From a virus (taxonomy: Duplodnaviria > Caudoviricetes), in IMG/VR virus record IMGVR_UViG_3300023503_000001, positions 1 through 54,472 of that record: a stretch of DNA of 54,472 bases, one strand, 5' to 3'. How positions within the stretch are numbered: position 1 is the first letter of the stretch; each line of letters opens with the position of its first letter. A program made the position numbers and the translations under genes. Under the pieces are notes generated by a model. It had not been told where the DNA came from and searched no databases. It saw nothing but the letters and a program-made list of their open reading frames with translations. Below are positions 827 to 35,300 of the stretch, piece after piece.

Positions 827-892
827 ATTTTAACAAATTTGAATTTATTTGTAAAATTAAAATTTTTTATTTAGCTATAAAATATAGCTATA
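827..892 (-). promoter_or_regulatory. Conserved phage promoter, copy 1
   Basis: TATA-N9-TATA box, A-tract, TTTTAC, 18 nt, TAAAAT. Confidence 0.7.
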
Positions 893-919
893 TGAAATAT
901 ATTTAACTATCCATAGTGT

Positions 920-1140
920 TCTAAATATTTTTCAATATTTCTGCGTAGCTCATTTCTTCATCGCCTAACCAAGTTGTGCGCTTTGATTTCAGCCGATGTA
1001 ATTTAGCAAGTGCTTCGCTGAACGCACCTGGACCGTCCACTTGCGTTCGTGTACCCGTCGAAACCCGTCACCTCCGTCATGGTGGAAGTGGGTGGAATCG
1101 AACCCCTGTCCGAACGCCATCACGTTCGCTTCATCCGGCC
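920..1140 (-). ncRNA. ssrA: Circularly permuted (two-piece) tmRNA-like RNA; outer ends uncertain
   Basis: 3' end ...TTCGGACAGGGGTTCGATTCCACCCACTTCCACCA (CCA at 1080-1082), 4-nt linker, then 5' end GGAGGTGACGGGTTTCGACGGG from 1075; acceptor stem GGAGGTG/CACTTCC. Confidence 0.7.
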
Positions 1141-1151
1141 AGTTGCCAACC

Positions 1152-1310
1152 TCACCGGGAGTGAGATTCTTTCGAGGCCGTGAAATAGTCGCGCATCACT
1201 TCTTCCTCATAATCGTCGTCGTCGAGATCAATATCAGGTGGTTCGCTGAAAACAGCGATCACTATTAGGCACATCACACCGACGGCAAACACTGCAAACA
1301 AGGCGTCCAT
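1152..1310 (-). CDS. Small single-pass membrane protein with acidic tail (52 aa, not in ORF track)
   Basis: MDALFAVFAVGVMCLIVIAVFSEPPDIDLDDDDYEEE...; GAGGGG RBS. Confidence 0.65.
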   Translation of the reverse strand: MDALFAVFAVGVMCLIVIAVFSEPPDIDLDDDDYEEEVMRDYFTASKESHSR

Positions 1311-2353: not shown

Positions 2354-2393
2354 ATTATAGCACAAATAAACGGAAGTCGAACCCACACTCTGT

Positions 2394-2609
2394 CTATAAA
2401 TGTAGCTCCTCTTTCTGTTCTGCTATCGCCTCGTGCGCTAATTGCGCGGACATGTCGAGTTTCTCCAGACGATCGGCCATCTGCTCAAGCAAATTTGCCA
2501 CCTCGTCTGCATAAGCTGCCTTGTTCAATACCCCAGTCTCGGTGAGTGGCTGCGATTTGATGTCGTTCGCCACCTCTCTGGCGCGTTTGATCAGTTCGTC
2601 GTTGCTCAT
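2394..2609 (-). CDS. Hypothetical helical protein (true start 2609)
   Basis: MSNDELIKRAREVA, GAGG RBS, ATGA coupling; the longer ORF-track N-terminus overlaps other genes. Confidence 0.7.
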   Translation of the reverse strand: MSNDELIKRAREVANDIKSQPLTETGVLNKAAYADEVANLLEQMADRLEKLDMSAQLAHEAIAEQKEELHL

Positions 2610-2713
2610 TTCAACCTCGCCCACGGTGATGACAGGAGCGCCAGGATCGCGGCGCAGATGACGACTATCAGGATCGCGGCGCAGATGACGACTATCAGGA
2701 TCGGCTCGCTCAC
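2606..2713 (-). CDS. 35-aa hydrophobic peptide (not in ORF track)
   Basis: MSEPILIVVICAAILIVVICAAILALLSSPWARLK; GTGA overlap upstream and ATGA overlap downstream. Confidence 0.65.
   Translation of the reverse strand: MSEPILIVVICAAILIVVICAAILALLSSPWARLK
2642..2703. repeat. 27-bp tandem repeat (2.3 copies)
   Basis: CAGGATCGCGGCGCAGATGACGACTAT at 2642 and 2669, partial copy at 2696. Confidence 0.95.
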
Positions 2714-3156
2714 AGCACCACCTCGCCTCGGTTGAGCTTATCAACAAGCTCCTCAACTTTTTCTCTCGGGCCGTAAGGTATCCAGGGGTTCCTGTATGCC
2801 ACGTCACACGAAGCATCCCACTCCTCAAACTGTACGTCGTATTCAGGAAAGTACGCGGGTAGTCCGGTCTCCGGCACCTCGTAGTCGGGCCAATGCTCCA
2901 GGGCATAGGCGACAAGTCGGTGGTGGACGCGCATGAGGTCGGCTGCCCGTGCTGCCAGGGCTTGGGTTGGGTACTCAAGGCCGAAGCGTCTGCGCATGGA
3001 TGATTCGATGCCCTCGCCTACATCCCCCCAACCGTTCACATAGAACCGCCCGCCCTTCGGCTCCCATTGTTGCGGCTTCGGGGGTTCGATGGTGATGCTC
3101 TCACCGCGTTGTAAAACATCCCACTGCTCATCAGTAAACTGAATTGTCTTGCTCAT
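2710..3156 (-). CDS. Hypothetical phage protein
   Basis: GC-rich ORF, AAGGAG RBS. Confidence 0.8.
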   Translation of the reverse strand: MSKTIQFTDEQWDVLQRGESITIEPPKPQQWEPKGGRFYVNGWGDVGEGIESSMRRRFGLEYPTQALAARAADLMRVHHRLVAYALEHWPDYEVPETGLPAYFPEYDVQFEEWDASCDVAYRNPWIPYGPREKVEELVDKLNRGEVVL

Positions 3157-3364
3157 GATCACACTCCTTATTATGGATCAATCTATTCAATGTCTCTTCT
3201 ATTTGACGTGCTTTTACTCGATGGATGTAAAGTCTTTGCATATTTGGATAATAATTCATCATCCGCAATTTTGGACTAAATGAATTGCGCTTCAATACAA
3301 AGACAAACCAAAACCAATCAAAAAACCCAACGGCTTTAATTTCTTTGATGTATCTTTTTAGCAT
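3131..3364 (-). CDS. Hypothetical protein
   Basis: 77-aa ORF in a tightly packed operon. Confidence 0.6.
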   Translation of the reverse strand: MLKRYIKEIKAVGFFDWFWFVFVLKRNSFSPKLRMMNYYPNMQRLYIHRVKARQIEETLNRLIHNKECDHEQDNSVY

Positions 3365-4311: not shown

Positions 4312-4377
4312 ATTATAATTTAATTGAAAGAAAAAGTAAAATTAAACTTTTTTATAGCCTTATAAATTTAATTTATA
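4312..4377 (-). promoter_or_regulatory. Conserved phage promoter, copy 2
   Basis: TATAAATTAAATTTATA box, A-tract, TTTTAC(T), TATAAT. Confidence 0.8.
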
Positions 4378-4396
4378 GGGCACTATCTATTTAACA

Positions 4397-5939: not shown

Positions 5940-6004
5940 ATTATAGTTTAAATTTTTAAAAAGTACAATTAAACTTTTTTATTTTTGAATAAAATTTATT
6001 TATA
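5940..6004 (-). promoter_or_regulatory. Conserved phage promoter, copy 3
   Basis: TTGTAC-17-TATAAT plus upstream box. Confidence 0.8.
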
Positions 6005-6785
6005 TCATTTTTACAATTTTTATAAAATTATAAATATAGTGCATTTTCGCAAAATGCGAAAAATTTCGCATTTGCGAAAAACATCCAGTAACAATTTATA
6101 AAATTATTACTGCGTTGTTAAACTGTAAAATTGTAATTCTTATAAGTGTTTCGCGCACAATGTACCGGGCAGGCGTCCCTACCTGGGCGAGGGAGCCGAC
6201 CAAGCGAAGTTTGATGAATAATCACCCGAATTCACTATAACAAATTTGCTCTTCGCACGAGTTCGCATACATTCGCAAGCACAACGCAGCGTCGTCCTCA
6301 CCTGGATGACCTAGGGCCTGTCTTGTACTGGCTGGGGAGTCTTAGTTTCGCACAGCGTTGCATAACTTCGTTCAAGTTCGCAAAGTATAAATGAGTCAGG
6401 CCCCCCTGGGTAACTACCTTGAGTTGACTGCGTTGGCCCCCCCCCACTCGGGGCTAAATTGGCATTAAGTAGCGGGCGTGTGAAGAGCCAAAAGGCCTAG
6501 TGTCCAAGAGTGCACACACCCGAACTAGTGCATTTCTATATTCATAAAAAAAAAAAAAATATTATATATACATATATATGTTATTATTCTAGTAATTACA
6601 GACTGCTAGTCTGTAAGCTAGGCCCAGTCGATTTGGCTTGGGCCTAGTGCGTTTTGATGGATGTATGTCCTTGGCGGGCCCGTCATAGGAAGGACCTGGG
6701 CCTGGCTGGGCTCGACCAGGGACAGCGCTGTGTCTCTTTTGTGTGCGAAAATCTTCGCAACTTGCGAAAAAATTTATTAAAAGGT

Positions 6786-7348: not shown

Positions 7349-7566
7349 TTGTGGTTCCTCCAAGTGTGTCCAATTTGGCCAATAACTTTGTCAATCAAGA
7401 GATTTGACAAAAGCACAAAAAAGATATAAGGTGGGCCTATCATACCAAAAATGGCATATGTCTTCAATAGCATCCACCAAAATTCTTCACCTTGTGGGCC
7501 TGAGGGCCATGGTGCCCAAAGCGAAAGGCTTAAGGCTGAGAAAAAAATTGTTATCGCTATTTTCAT
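7345..7566 (-). CDS. Small membrane protein
   Basis: Two hydrophobic segments, coupled overlaps. Confidence 0.7.
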   Translation of the reverse strand: MKIAITIFFSALSLSLWAPWPSGPQGEEFWWMLLKTYAIFGMIGPPYIFFVLLSNLLIDKVIGQIGHTWRNHK

Positions 7567-7871
7567 TGCAATTGCCCCGCCCAGCGCTCAAGATATTGCT
7601 CATACTCGCCTACAATATAGGCGAATAGATACTTTTCCAAAGTAGTAAGGTCTGTGTTTACAAACCGCCACTTCTCGAGCTCCAGAACGTAAGCATTTTG
7701 TTCTGGTGACCACTTAATGGCCCAGTGGTTGTCGTAGAGATAACCAACCCCACCCTCAGGGTAGGCATGAGATACATCACTAGGGACCGCAGATCTTTGC
7801 CATCTTGTAAATGCCAACCACCAAATTGTGGACTTTTCGTTAAATGGATAGACCTCATCAAATTCAAGCAT
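7563..7871 (-). CDS. Hypothetical early protein
   Basis: AGGAGG RBS, 102 aa. Confidence 0.8.
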   Translation of the reverse strand: MLEFDEVYPFNEKSTIWWLAFTRWQRSAVPSDVSHAYPEGGVGYLYDNHWAIKWSPEQNAYVLELEKWRFVNTDLTTLEKYLFAYIVGEYEQYLERWAGQLQ

Positions 7872-8192: not shown

Positions 8193-8537
8193 TCATGCTT
8201 CTTTTTCTTGCTTGGCCCACTCGAGGGCCATGGCAATGTAGTTATAGGCATGCTGATTTGAGCTGTACTTCTTGCCATTAACTTCACACATGCTTTTGAT
8301 GAGCTCCTTCTTAGGCATTTTACCATAGTTGGCACGAAGGAACTCGACAGTAGGGCCCCAGTCTGAAGAACCACTATGTGCGACTATGCCGAGCTCTTCT
8401 TTGAGCTCTTTGACGGTCTTTTTTGCTTCGTTTGTTGAAAAATCATGAGCGTAGATAAGGAATCCTTCCGCCTTGGCGGAAGTTGCACCAGCTTCCAGGA
8501 GTTCACGAGCTTGATCAATGGGGTTGACGTTTGCCAT
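8193..8537 (-). CDS. Two-repeat helical protein (EWAKQE family)
   Basis: Near-colinear paralog of 10339-10689; own promoter and terminator. Confidence 0.9.
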   Translation of the reverse strand: MANVNPIDQARELLEAGATSAKAEGFLIYAHDFSTNEAKKTVKELKEELGIVAHSGSSDWGPTVEFLRANYGKMPKKELIKSMCEVNGKKYSSNQHAYNYIAMALEWAKQEKEA

Positions 8538-8613: not shown

Positions 8614-8679
8614 ATTATAGACAAAAAGTTTAAAAAAGTACAATTAAACTCTTTTATCTATGTATAAGTTTTATTTATG
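8614..8679 (-). promoter_or_regulatory. Conserved phage promoter, copy 4
   Basis: TTGTAC-18-TATAAT plus upstream box. Confidence 0.8.
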
Positions 8680-8887
8680 TCATGTTTTCAAAATCATGTA
8701 AACTACAATCTACTTTCTTACCACCTGGCGTTTCAAGTATCCATGCATCTTCATATGATATGTCCATTATATCACAAAACAGATAGAAAAAGTCAAATAT
8801 GGTCATATCATGATGTGGCCACATCTTGACATAGTAGCATTTACTGCTACTAAGATCTTTCAACTTACCATGTCTTAGTTTGCTCAT
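8675..8887 (-). CDS. Hypothetical early protein
   Basis: 70-aa ORF behind promoter copy 5. Confidence 0.75.
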   Translation of the reverse strand: MSKLRHGKLKDLSSSKCYYVKMWPHHDMTIFDFFYLFCDIMDISYEDAWILETPGGKKVDCSLHDFENMT

Positions 8888-8919
8888 GGTTTACTTCCTG
8901 TTGTCCACTTATACTTATA

Positions 8920-8984
8920 ATTATAGGCAAAAAAATTAAAAAATACAATTGAATTTTTCTATGAGCATATAAACTTATTTTATA
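8920..8984 (-). promoter_or_regulatory. Conserved phage promoter, copy 5
   Basis: TTGTAT-17-TATAAT plus upstream box. Confidence 0.8.
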
Positions 8985-9081
8985 ACATGAGGCAAATACC
9001 GCCAGGGGTACCCGCCATATTTAGAATATAGCAACGCCAGAAGATACCATAGGCTTCCTTGCCTATGGTATTTTTGTTATG

Positions 9082-9416: not shown

Positions 9417-9482
9417 ATTATAGACTAAAAGAATTAAAAAGTACAATTGAATATTCTTTTAAGTCTATAAAATAAATTTATA
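9417..9482 (-). promoter_or_regulatory. Conserved phage promoter, copy 6
   Basis: TTGTAC-18-TATAAT plus upstream box. Confidence 0.8.
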
Positions 9483-9517
9483 TGGTATTGAATACCATAG
9501 TGCACGCAGGATTGTGA

Positions 9518-9998: not shown

Positions 9999-10063
9999 AT
10001 TATATTATATAATTTTCTCCTTGTAAAATTGAATTTTTTATTTTTGAATTAGTTTTTCTTATA
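9999..10063 (-). promoter_or_regulatory. Conserved phage promoter, copy 7
   Basis: TTTTAC-18-TATAAT plus degenerate upstream box. Confidence 0.7.
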
Positions 10064-10125
10064 TCATACATAACTCTCACTTAACACCACACTGCATACT
10101 ATATAAGGCACTCTCACACCAGGTC

Positions 10126-10338: not shown

Positions 10339-10689
10339 TTACTTCTGAGCTTCGACTTCCTGTTTAGCCCATTCAATCGCCATTGCGATATAATTGTATG
10401 CGTGTTGGTTGGTCTTATAGGTCTTTCCGTTGACCTCACACATACCGTTGATCAACTCCTTTTTGCCAAGCTTGCCGTAATTTTCCCGAAGGAATTTCAC
10501 AGTCTCGGTCCAGCCGGCCTTGCTATAGGCGTTGGTGGAGATTCCGCATTTTTCGAATGCTTTGGCCGCCAAGGTTTTTGCCTCGTTGACCGAGCAATCG
10601 TGCATGTAGATGAGGAACCCCTCAACTTTCGCCTTCGTGGCGCCGCCCTCGACCATCTCGATTGCTTGTTGCATCATTTCATTGCTCAT
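10339..10689 (-). CDS. Two-repeat helical protein (EWAKQE family)
   Basis: AGGAG RBS; first gene of the minus-strand early region. Confidence 0.9.
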   Translation of the reverse strand: MSNEMMQQAIEMVEGGATKAKVEGFLIYMHDCSVNEAKTLAAKAFEKCGISTNAYSKAGWTETVKFLRENYGKLGKKELINGMCEVNGKTYKTNQHAYNYIAMAIEWAKQEVEAQK

Positions 10690-32300: not shown

Positions 32301-35300
32301 TACAACTGAAGCAGCTTTATTAAAAGGTGCAAATGTTTTTGCTTGGGGTCAAGAAGGTCGATGGGAAATTTGTCAATTTGAGTCCGTAGAATTAATTGAT
32401 ACAAATAAATATTTACTTAAAAAGCTGTTAAGAGGCCGCAGAGGCACAAATAAATTCATAAATACACATCAGGTAAATGATAAGTTTATTTTACTTGATA
32501 GTAATAAAATTGTTCGTCAACAATTAGTTTTAAATGATATTGCTTCTACTTATTATTATAAGTTTTTAGCCTCTCAACAAACATTAGCAGATGTAACTGC
32601 TAAATCATTTACTATAAATGATAATGCTTTAAAGCCATTTTCACCAATCAATATTACATATGATGACAATAATGGAGATTTAATTTTCACTTGGACTCGA
32701 CGTACTAGACGAAATGGTTTCTATTATAATTTATATGATAGTGTAGGAGGCTCTTTACAAGAAGACTTTGAAAAATATAAAATAGAACTCTATGACACAA
32801 ATAATATACTAATTCGTTCTGAATTTGTAACAACAGCTACATATACATATACTCTTGTCCAACGGATCCAAGACGCTGTATTTGATAATTTTACAATAAA
32901 AATATATCAACAAAGCGCAGTAGTTGAAGATGGCTTTGATGAGGTATATACATATCTTTCATCCGTTGATGTAGATCTTAATTTATATTTTTCGACTGCT
33001 TTATCTTTTGATTCAGCATATATTCTTCCTATTGTTCAACCTTATTTAAGTGGATATGGTACTAAGTATGGCTTAAATTATGGAGGTGATGCGTTTAATT
33101 ATTATTTCTCGTCTCAAAATAATATTGAAATAAAAGGGCATTCTGTCGTATCAATACAATCAGATGGGACTGATGAATTAGCATATATACGGCCTAAGAT
33201 ATTTCCTTCTTCATATCAATTTTTATTTAAAATAAAAGGTGTACCTACTAGTGGGACTATTCCATTCTTTTTAGAACGTTATAATGATTCTCCAGAAAGT
33301 CCTTTTATTGGTTTAGCTCTTGTAAATGGTAGGTTTAATAGAGCTATAAGATATAATTTTAATAGTGGAATTTCTTACTACTATTCTGGCGTTACTTATA
33401 ATGGTTCAGATTTTTACGTTAAAGTAATTTATTCTCAAAAAAATGAAGAAATTACTTTTTATATGTCATATGATTTAGAAAATTGGACCTTCATAAGTAC
33501 AGAACAAATAGCTTACTTACCCTTGCCTTGTTTATGTGGTAATACTTCTGTTGTAGCAACTTTTGAATTAATTGAATATTCTCCAGAAATAATAGTCTCC
33601 AAAGATTTAAATGCTACTTATGTAGAGATGTGCTCTAAATTAGGCGCAGTTGTACATTGGTCATTTGATGAGCTTTCTGGTCAAACAGCAATTGATAGCA
33701 TTGGTAGTTTAAATGGAACTTATAATAATACTATATTAACCCAGACGCCCTTACAACTCGAATCTGATTATTCTATTAAATTTAACACTGGAGGCTTCAT
33801 TTCAACTCCATTAAATTTAACTAATAATACAGATATTACTATTTCATGTTTCTTTAAAAGCCCTATACAATTACCTTCTACTATGAAAGTAATTTGTAGC
33901 TTAGGAGATACAATAAATGAAACAGATAAAAAAGTATTATATATAAGTCAAGGTTATGTTTATGCTGATGGTTCAAAAAATTTAACAAATCTTTTCATAT
34001 CTTTTGGTGATACATATTTAGACACTAAGGTTGCAATTAATGATGACTTAATTCACCATTTAATTGTGAGCGTTAAAACAAATGAAGTAAAAATTTATTT
34101 AGATAATCAATTACTTACGTATGAGTATAATAATACAATTGGAAATATAGATTTGACAGGAAGTCAACCTTTATTGATTGGAGCTAAAACAACCACTGAT
34201 ACTGCCTTTAATTGGCATGGTTACCTGGATGAATTTAGTGTCTTTACAGAGGTTCTTCCTTATGCTAAAATTAATCAATTATTTAAACGCAGTATTTCTA
34301 CTTATGCTCAATTTATTTATCAATTAAAGCCATATGCTTATTATCCATTAAATGATTTACGTGTAAATGATTTTTCTGGGAATGAATTTAATTTAGTAAC
34401 TAGTAATGCATTAGTTTTAACAAATAGTTTAGTAGCTAATAAAAAAGATTCAGCGTTACAATTTGATGGTACAGCTTATGTGAAAACAAACACACCGGCA
34501 TTAACTAGTGTTGCAACTATTTGTTTATGGGTTACTTTTGATTCTTCTGCCTCAACAGTTAAAAATATTATATACAGTACAGGACAACCTGACTCTACTC
34601 AGGGTGAAAAAATAGAAATAGGCTACATAGATGAATTAGGTACATCTTCTTTAGCTGTCTTCTTCGGAGGTAACTATATAAAAGATAGCTCGCTCAGAAA
34701 CATAAAAGACGACGCAGTACATTTTATCTGTGTAGTTCTTGGTCCAACCATTGATGCAACTGAACTTTATTTGGATGGTATAAAACTTACTACTGTTAAA
34801 AATAATACCACAGTAGAAAAATCAACTATTGATTTAGGTTATACCTATTTAGGTCGTTCTGTTGATGCTGTTTCTAATAACCATAAAGGAAAACTTGACG
34901 AGGTAACTATATTTAATAAAAAGCTTACTCCCGAACAAATCTTAGTATTATATAAAATAGGTAAGCAAACTTATAGTTCTTTAGCTTTAACTAAATCTAC
35001 TTTTGCTTATTTTAAATTTGAGAAAACATTAAATTTAATTGAGATAAAGGATGAATATCTTCAGTTAACTTCTACTGACTTTAATTTAATTTCGCTTGAG
35101 AGTGGTAATTTAATTGAAGAAACTGGTTGTAAATTCATAGCTGAAACAAGTTATGTGAAAATTATTAATTTAAATAATAGTTTAAATACACTAAAAGGAT
35201 TTAATTTTATTACAGCGATTGATTCACAATTAACCGCTAAATCATCAATTATATCCTTTGTTAATCAAACATTAACGCAGGGCTTTATTCTTTCATATAC

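Follow-up and report, generated by a model that had tools for sequence, protein, structure and literature searches.

The stretch of DNA analysed here, called the window in the following, is the whole of the IMG/VR record IMGVR_UViG_3300023503_000001, a linear phage record of 54,472 nucleotides (nt). Near one end of it, on the minus strand from 1140 to about 920, lies a circularly permuted gene that, as read from its sequence, resembles the genes of transfer-messenger RNA (tmRNA), with a segment like the acceptor piece coming before a segment like the coding piece. In an independently made assembly of a public run, the sequence of 716-2334 is identical but for two letters at 2219-2220.

Anatomy and homology of the tmRNA-like element

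All features in this section are on the minus strand and are given in the direction of reading. The acceptor-piece-like segment (1080..1140) is delimited by its sequence and by positions 1-62 of the Rfam model RF04321. It begins with the 3'-side strand of P2 (GGCCG at 1140-1136, running on to GCGUUCG), which is followed by GGAC (1111-1108), the 5' strand of the T stem, AGGGG (1107-1103), the T loop UUCGAUU (1102-1096), the 3' strand of the T stem, CCACC (1095-1091), the 3' strand of the acceptor stem, CACUUCC (1090-1084), the discriminator A (1083) and CCA (1082-1080). A linker of only 4 nt, UGAC (1079-1076), stands between this CCA and the 5' strand of the acceptor stem, GGAGGUG (1075-1069, with A3 at 1073 and G4 at 1072), with which the 5' part of the coding-piece-like segment begins (1031..1075, RF04321 model positions 87-133). 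Next come the D-loop analogue and P2a, ACGGGUUUCGACGGG (1068-1054), the D-loop analogue within 1031-1075 being GGUUUCGAC, and the 5'-side strand of P2, which ends with CGGUC (1035-1031).

The acceptor stem is paired in all 7 of its 7 positions and keeps A73, G1-C72 and G2-C71, with A3(1073)-U70(1086) and G4(1072).U69(1087) instead of the pair G3.U70. In the T stem 3 of the 5 pairs are formed, the mismatches being A1107.C1091 (pair 49-65) and G1105.A1093 (pair 51-63). In the Infernal alignment P2 consists of GGCCG/CGGUC in its distal part, CGUG/CACG and GCG/CGC in the middle and P2a beside the tRNA-like domain; its duplex has an energy of -21.3 kcal/mol, the 9th best of 30, with a z-score against shuffles of only -1.5. 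What is intact in the element is therefore the permuted gene order, the T loop, the D-loop analogue, GGAC, the ACCA end, the complementarity of the acceptor strands and P2.

Beyond P2 there is a hairpin of 6 base pairs, AGGUGC/GCACUU, with a loop of 10 nt (1008..1029), at the site where related genes have a hairpin or a PK1 element; its placing at 1029-1008 is given by alignment with the phage loci L004, L008, L017, L039 and L036, which belong to the comparison below. The sequence UUCAGC of its loop (1022-1017) could pair with GCUGAA (993-988). An alternative helix of 7 base pairs, formed by GCAAGUG (1044-1038) and the complementary CACUUGC (1012-1006), is the one used by the minimum-free-energy fold.

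For the tag, two in-frame alignments are possible. Candidate frame (i), at 958..993, starts with GCU as the resume codon, reads AEIKAHNLVRR and stops with UGA; it begins 14 nt past the hairpin, after an A-rich spacer, and has 11 codons and, like the closest subfamily, an A at position -4; MAFFT aligns it with the resume region of the same five loci (L004, L008, L017, L039 and L036). Candidate frame (ii), at 921..965, reads (G)DEEMSYAEILKNI (...SYAEILKNI) and stops with UAG; by-eye comparison with the loci L009 and L019 shows that it shares UACGCAG and the codon spacing with their ANDxxYA-type tags, after which AT-rich sequence follows. A third short frame, GCG AUG AAG AAA UGA, lies at 964-950. 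Whichever resume codon the RNA would use, these candidate frames end with RR, NI and KK, none of them with Ala-Ala or Ala. We dropped the view that the tag is frameshifted and the 3' domain missing, since two in-frame alignments are possible and since the tmRNA 3' ends given by ARAGORN are set by rule, at a fixed 88 nt past the stop codon. The span from P2 to the stop of the tag is 183-220 nt in the element and 178-262 nt in the comparators, and thus the description of the element as a miniature tmRNA, made in an earlier sequence-only reading of this DNA, does not hold.

The structural observations of that reading were all found again in the sequence, i.e., the permuted order, the 4-nt linker, A3-U70 and G4.U69, the two T-stem mismatches, the short frames without an Ala-Ala end and the GCAAGTG/CACTTGC helix. 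It had also seen no smpB, and the record indeed contains no SmpB match. Phage tmRNAs normally depend on the SmpB of the host.

The window has one occurrence of the motif of a permuted tRNA-like domain, while 100 shuffles have none. With 901 nt searched, Infernal gives E-values of 1.8e-8 for the model RF01850 (local, 33 bits) and 1.1e-5 for RF04321 (36.9 bits), and for the whole record the E-value is 2.0e-7. Because of the shuffles and these E-values, the match is not due to chance and the element is a true homolog of permuted tmRNA, so that the claim of a phage-borne, circularly permuted tmRNA homolog without G3.U70 and without an Ala-Ala tag is borne out. The detectors that had been proposed as a check gave a divided answer: while the matches to RF04321 and RF01850 are significant, the 36.9 bits of RF04321 lie under its gathering cut-off of 47 and the alignment covers just the tRNA-like domain and P2, positions 1-133 of the 213 in the model; ARAGORN calls four tRNAs and no tmRNA in the window. 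Among 50,697 phage records there is only one match, of 62 nt with 80.6 % identity, to Stenotrophomonas phage vB_Sm_QDWS359.

Comparison with the permuted tmRNA genes of other phages

Two-piece tmRNA genes in phages have been published before, among them that of the OM43 phage Melnitz and 53 ARAGORN calls in isolate genomes, mostly marine (PMC9004378), and the tmRNA database holds 79 phage sequences according to the description in PMC11915505. In the literature search, outside of which were the supplementary tables of PMC11915505 and PMC9004378, no paper on a degenerate permuted tmRNA copy in a phage was found.

We gathered comparators by scanning IMG/VR with a motif of the permuted tRNA-like domain that set no condition on positions 3-5 and 68-70 or on the outer T-stem pairs. 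This gave 43 contigs with linkers of 0-30 nt and 57 contigs with linkers of 31-60 nt, one of which is cut by the contig end; some of the contigs are duplicated, with about 35 distinct tag regions. Since canonical loops are part of the motif, the scan would overlook further degenerate copies. A linker of 4 nt is present in 7 of the 43 short-linker comparators, and neither such a linker nor the size of the gene is unusual among phage permuted tmRNAs.

The short-linker phage genes matching RF04321/RF01850 (that of vB_Sm_QDWS359 and the loci L008, L009, L019 and L031) have the same gene order, T loop, D-loop analogue and P2 as the element, which also resembles them in lying among phage tRNA genes, and the identity is 80-82 % over about 60 nt of the tRNA-like domain. 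No similarity to the comparators past this domain was found by BLAST, the region after P2 being unaligned. Unlike these genes, however, the element lacks G3.U70 and an Ala-ending tag, has two T-stem mismatches, is under the Rfam cut-off and is not called by ARAGORN.

The constancy of the comparators in just these features is complete. G3.U70, a T stem with 5 of 5 pairs and an acceptor stem with 7 of 7 pairs occur together in 44 of 44 short-linker cases (the 43 loci and the Stenotrophomonas phage gene) and, where the linker has 31-60 nt, at all 56 loci that were evaluable; 100 of 100 evaluable viral-contig comparators are canonical, plus the Stenotrophomonas phage gene. ARAGORN, which was applied to the short-linker loci and not to the 57 longer-linker ones, calls a permuted tmRNA (tmRNA*) in 43 of the 43 and in the Stenotrophomonas phage gene, and the tags end with Ala-Ala at 40 of the 43 loci (41 of 44 with the Stenotrophomonas phage), the other 3 ending with Val-Ala or Leu-Ala. 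For the Stenotrophomonas phage gene the score with RF04321 is 108.7 bits and the ARAGORN tag is ANDSVYAQAIAA; on 16 of the 43 short-linker loci that were scored, all 16 reach 85.3-162.8 bits over the full model. The T arm folds with -6.3 to -8.8 kcal/mol in the comparators (29 of 29), while for the element the energy is about -2.3 kcal/mol and the register is different. That the 100 comparators and the gene of a named phage keep G3.U70 and perfect stems argues that these permuted tmRNAs are charged and used.

The consequence for the element depends on alanyl-tRNA synthetase (AlaRS). According to PMC8583063, recognition by AlaRS is dominated by a single determinant, G3.U70, and the charging of RNAs with G4:U69 is reported for the eukaryotic enzyme only, not for the bacterial one. 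Since the element has no G3.U70 and bacterial AlaRS does not use G4:U69, the RNA should not be alanylated in a bacterial host, and without alanylation trans-translation should not start.

These data bear directly on the possibility that the element works as a two-piece tmRNA of altered identity, which would be charged via G4.U69 or by another synthetase, would carry a tag not ending with Ala-Ala (AEIKAHNLVRR or DEEMSYAEILKNI) and would rescue ribosomes without degradation of the ClpXP type. Consistent with this possibility, all pairs of the acceptor stem are formed and A73, G1-C72 and G2-C71 are retained, P2 is intact, the 11-codon frame starting with GCU and having A at -4 lies at the expected distance, and tag sequences vary widely among the phage comparators. 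Nevertheless, the use of G4:U69 is eukaryotic in the account of PMC8583063 just mentioned, G3.U70 and a perfect T stem are kept by every evaluable comparator, 44 of 44 comparator tags end with Ala (41 of them with Ala-Ala), and the Infernal alignment of the element ends at P2. We thus consider a working tmRNA improbable, and the proposal of a miniature tmRNA that rescues without tagging for degradation, which the sequence-only reading had put forward, finds no support in view of the lost G3.U70, the reported restriction of G4:U69 charging to eukaryotic enzymes and the broken T stem.

A canonical near-relative and the proposed reading of the element as a relic

A contig from the same vent samples, present in the public runs X1 and X3, matches 1027-1072 of the window with 2 differences, at a depth of about 50-70; in X3, from which the phage itself is absent, it has 315 nt and a depth of 50. 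Upstream, this near-relative, a canonical permuted tmRNA of the short-linker type, has a canonical 3' strand of the acceptor stem (with C69), an unbroken T-stem strand, a linker of 5 nt and a G at position 3, and downstream of the shared block its hairpin differs from that of the window. The sequence of the near-relative was not found in metagenome, genome or viral collections, and its source may be the host or else another phage. Run X2 covers only 764-1054 of the window and thus gives no evidence on the remainder.

With such a shared block, it should be asked whether the element is a gene remnant at all, or whether it is an attachment-site or recombination scar of an element integrating into a permuted ssrA gene, or else an assembler chimera across the ~40 nt shared with the near-relative. 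It is noted that the contigs of the public runs break at 1036-1056, inside the shared block, with depths of 12 and 34 across the break, and that ssrA fragments are known in prophages (PMC9004378). The depth difference, however, follows the GC content, and in X3, where the phage is absent, the two flanks of the near-relative are on one 315-nt contig, from which it would follow by elimination that the two flanks in the window belong together as well. Moreover, the element comprises more than the 3' end of a gene, having the two strands of P2 and the 5' part of its acceptor piece, the record has no integrase or serine recombinase match, and its replication module is of the lytic type. A scar or a chimera is therefore very improbable.

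Relative to the near-relative, the element has the changes G3>A, C69>U and C63>A, and a fourth one, G49>A, would be added if the 5' T-stem strand of the near-relative matches its 3' strand. These three or four changes lie in pairs that are otherwise invariant and are mostly from GC to AT in an AT-rich genome, as would fit relaxed constraint.

Orthologs were not found, with 0 motif matches in viral contigs, 0 in metagenome contigs (two motifs) and 0 in genome contigs (two motifs), in collections that may lack records very near the window. The collection of phage homologs that had been proposed yielded the 100 evaluable comparators but no sequence of the element's own form. Among the relatives of the phage, which were gathered by terminase alignment, the closest one, G002 (55,089 nt, 93 % complete, with a terminase 69 % identical), has the tRNA-Leu gene, the promoter repeats and a number of small genes in common with the window; at E <=1 it gives no match to RF04321. 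Three more fragmentary relatives also have no RF04321 match, i.e., the element is absent from 4 of 4 related records; a weak match of 16.6 bits in the relative G001 was dropped because cmscan did not reproduce it. Because the closest relative and three further ones have no such match, the element would appear to be accessory cargo in a variable region of this phage lineage.

We propose that the element is a decaying, most likely non-functional relic of the short-linker permuted tmRNA genes that are found next to tRNA genes in many phages, and we consider this reading probable, with a good deal of room left for doubt. What is found is a clear homology together with the loss of features that functional relatives never lack, by which a relic is recognised. 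In the proposed course of events, the ancestor would have been a short-linker permuted (two-piece) tmRNA gene beside phage tRNA genes, from which the G3.U70 needed by bacterial AlaRS, two of the five T-stem pairs and the Ala-Ala end of the tag would have been lost. Any transcript would perhaps still be cut by tRNA-processing enzymes; it would not be alanylated and hence would not enter trans-translation, and the gene would be drifting toward loss, mostly via changes from GC to AT. A decaying relic had been the fallback of the sequence-only reading, which had stated beforehand that homologs all having G3.U70 and perfect stems would make this copy a pseudogene. All of the 100 comparators and the Stenotrophomonas phage gene are of this kind, and with all of them keeping what is lost here the fallback has become the best-supported reading.

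Decay of this sort has precedent among bacteria, in which tmRNA pseudogenes are a recognised class (Hudson, Lau and Williams 2014, PMC4131195); the ssrA of Carsonella strain PC, which is eroded, is one of the cases noted there. Like the bacterial pseudogenes and degraded duplicates of ssrA described there, the element has a recognisable homology with the AlaRS determinants and the tag conservation lost, and according to that paper tmRNA curators reject calls with poor AlaRS determinants. The difference is that the pseudogenes described there are bacterial and mostly one-piece, while the element is phage-borne, permuted and only lightly eroded.

Several points weigh against a relic. The decay is mild, with the loops, the ACCA end, the acceptor complementarity and P2 all intact; both changes in the acceptor stem keep pairing; and two open frames have the typical length of a tag, one of them starting with GCU at the expected distance from the hairpin. 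About four lesions are too few to separate statistically neutral drift from selection for a new role. Note also that, because the search motif demanded canonical loops, the figure of 100 of 100 is a measure of the constraint in recognisable genes and not of the rarity of relics.

In another possible role, which the sequence-only reading had also named, the uncharged tRNA-like domain would act as a decoy: the RNA would bind the host SmpB, and perhaps EF-Tu or ribosomes, and would thus dampen the trans-translation of the host during infection, with the decay of the mRNA-like part being of no matter. In keeping with it, the T loop, GGAC, P2a and the D-loop analogue GGUUUCGAC, through which SmpB is contacted or the elbow is shaped, are intact, P2 is kept, and G3>A abolishes charging yet keeps the helix. 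There is also a published precedent in the mycobacteriophage DS6A, the tmRNA gene of which is little more than a tRNA-like domain, as described in PMC4131195, and for the engineered inhibitors based on this domain (Mao et al. 2009, as cited in PMC4131195) it is reported there that chargeability is unnecessary for inhibition. The DS6A gene and the element are both phage-borne tmRNA derivatives in which the tRNA-like domain may be the sole functional part; compared with that description, however, DS6A has a gene of the one-piece type with little beyond the domain, while the element keeps P2 and about 110 nt downstream and has a damaged T stem. Set against an inhibitor of the DS6A type, the element has its loops and P2a intact and its T stem weakened.

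Against a decoy, the breaking of two of the five pairs of the T stem should weaken the fold that would be needed. In addition, no relative with the same form appears in the searches of viral, metagenome and genome contigs given above, the nearest relative of the phage is entirely without the element, and a promoter-like site directly upstream was not found. We therefore regard an uncharged decoy as rather unlikely, and likewise consider it unlikely that the phage keeps the RNA as a deliberately unchargeable tmRNA mimic, which would shut down host trans-translation early by soaking up SmpB or by occupying stalled ribosomes. If a decoy it were, the element would be a natural viral inhibitor of ribosome rescue and would correspond, in permuted form, to the engineered inhibitors and to the tRNA-like domain of DS6A.

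If, as we favour, the element is a relic, the tmRNA genes of phages would be accessory cargo that may be gained with a cassette and may then decay. For annotation the element can serve as a negative control: a match to the permuted tRNA-like domain that is under the Rfam cut-off and lacks G3.U70 should not be named tmRNA.

Flanks of the element, the phage and observations on comparator loci

Downstream of the tag frames, an AT-only hairpin of 8 base pairs followed by an A/U-rich run (872..890, minus strand) is present in the minimum-free-energy and centroid folds and may be a weak terminator of the unit; the terminator scan made no call at 872-890, the hairpin having no G-C pairs. The downstream limit of the tmRNA-like unit is a promoter-like repeat copy (838-904, minus strand) that serves the next gene (800-525), and within 855-827 on the minus strand there is TTTACA-17-TAAAAT with an extended -10 TG. 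This AT-rich repeat of 67 nt (family D1) has 7 copies, at 838-904, 4323-4389, 5950-6016, 8625-8691, 8930-8996, 9428-9494 and 10009-10075, each just upstream of a small minus-strand gene or a tRNA, and the seven copies are probably the early promoters of the phage.

Just upstream of the unit there is a small hairpin, CUCAC/GUGAG, with GUUGGCAACUG (1140..1165, minus strand), and this arrangement recurs at 1358-1331. Each of the two consists of a small GC hairpin with GUUGRCAACUG after it, one copy standing before an open reading frame (ORF) of 52 amino acids (1310-1152) and the other overlapping the stop of this ORF and abutting the tmRNA-like unit. In L008 and L017, too, GUUGGCAA is present ahead of the tmRNA gene. 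The plus-strand ORFs 976-1164 and 1041-1268 and a minus-strand frame of 39 amino acids over the element have no family match and were taken as spurious.

The public runs that contain the window sequence are labelled as hydrothermal vent metagenome. The plus strand of the window carries the terminase, portal, tape-measure and further tail genes, and the minus strand carries a family-A DNA polymerase, an ATP-dependent ligase, a thymidylate synthase, a helicase and a primase. The families Phage_integrase and Resolvase have no match in the record, i.e., there is neither a tyrosine integrase nor a serine recombinase. The first 11 kb are a region of early type, in which small ORFs of the minus strand accompany four tRNA genes, for Arg, Met, Thr and Leu, and form a mosaic in GC content, with cassettes at about 930-2100 and 2390-3160 of 55-66 % GC on a background of 13-40 %; outside of the GC-rich cassettes the phage, which is of lytic type, has 30-35 % GC. 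The tmRNA-like element is placed at the end of the accessory cassette at about 930-2100. For the ORFs of the cassettes no relatives were found in the phage collection and no Pfam or PHROG family, and the neighbouring small proteins, used as queries, gave no relatives.

Both cassettes carry paralogous ORFs that start with M(N/S)(H/N)DELIKRARE (1756-1460 and about 2610-2394), and within the cassette 2390-3160 there is a perfect tandem duplication of 27 nt at 2642-2695. Other abundant contigs of the same runs match 1496-1576 and 2022-2142 of the window at about 81-84 %, which suggests that the GC-rich cassettes were acquired recently from a GC-rich member of the community.

At the comparator locus L004 of Stenotrophomonas phage vB_Sm_QDWS359 (2970-3387; GenBank ON331942.1, at about 34,700-35,120), the full permuted tmRNA comes right after genes for tRNA-fMet and tRNA-Ile, and the annotation of ON331942.1 at this place is a 'hypothetical protein' (vBSmQDWS359_42) on the opposite strand. 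At three other loci, L007 (672-1059), L032 (11745-12132) and L037 (3274-3347), ARAGORN finds tRNAs with the anticodon CTA, labelled Pyl, i.e., amber suppressors, adjoining the permuted tmRNAs; these tRNAs may be a sign of stop-codon reassignment in the phages concerned.

Farther along the window, two paralogous small genes on the minus strand, of 114 and 116 amino acids, lie at 8193-8537 and 10339-10689; the first of them has no family match, and the pair is present in two copies in the relative G002 as well (L052, about 7384-7720 and 8655-8999). The completeness of the window record is estimated by CheckV as 55 %. Since G002, which is of similar length (55.1 kb) and shares the gene content over the 13 kb compared, is rated as 93 % complete, the window phage may be nearer to complete than its label of 55 %.

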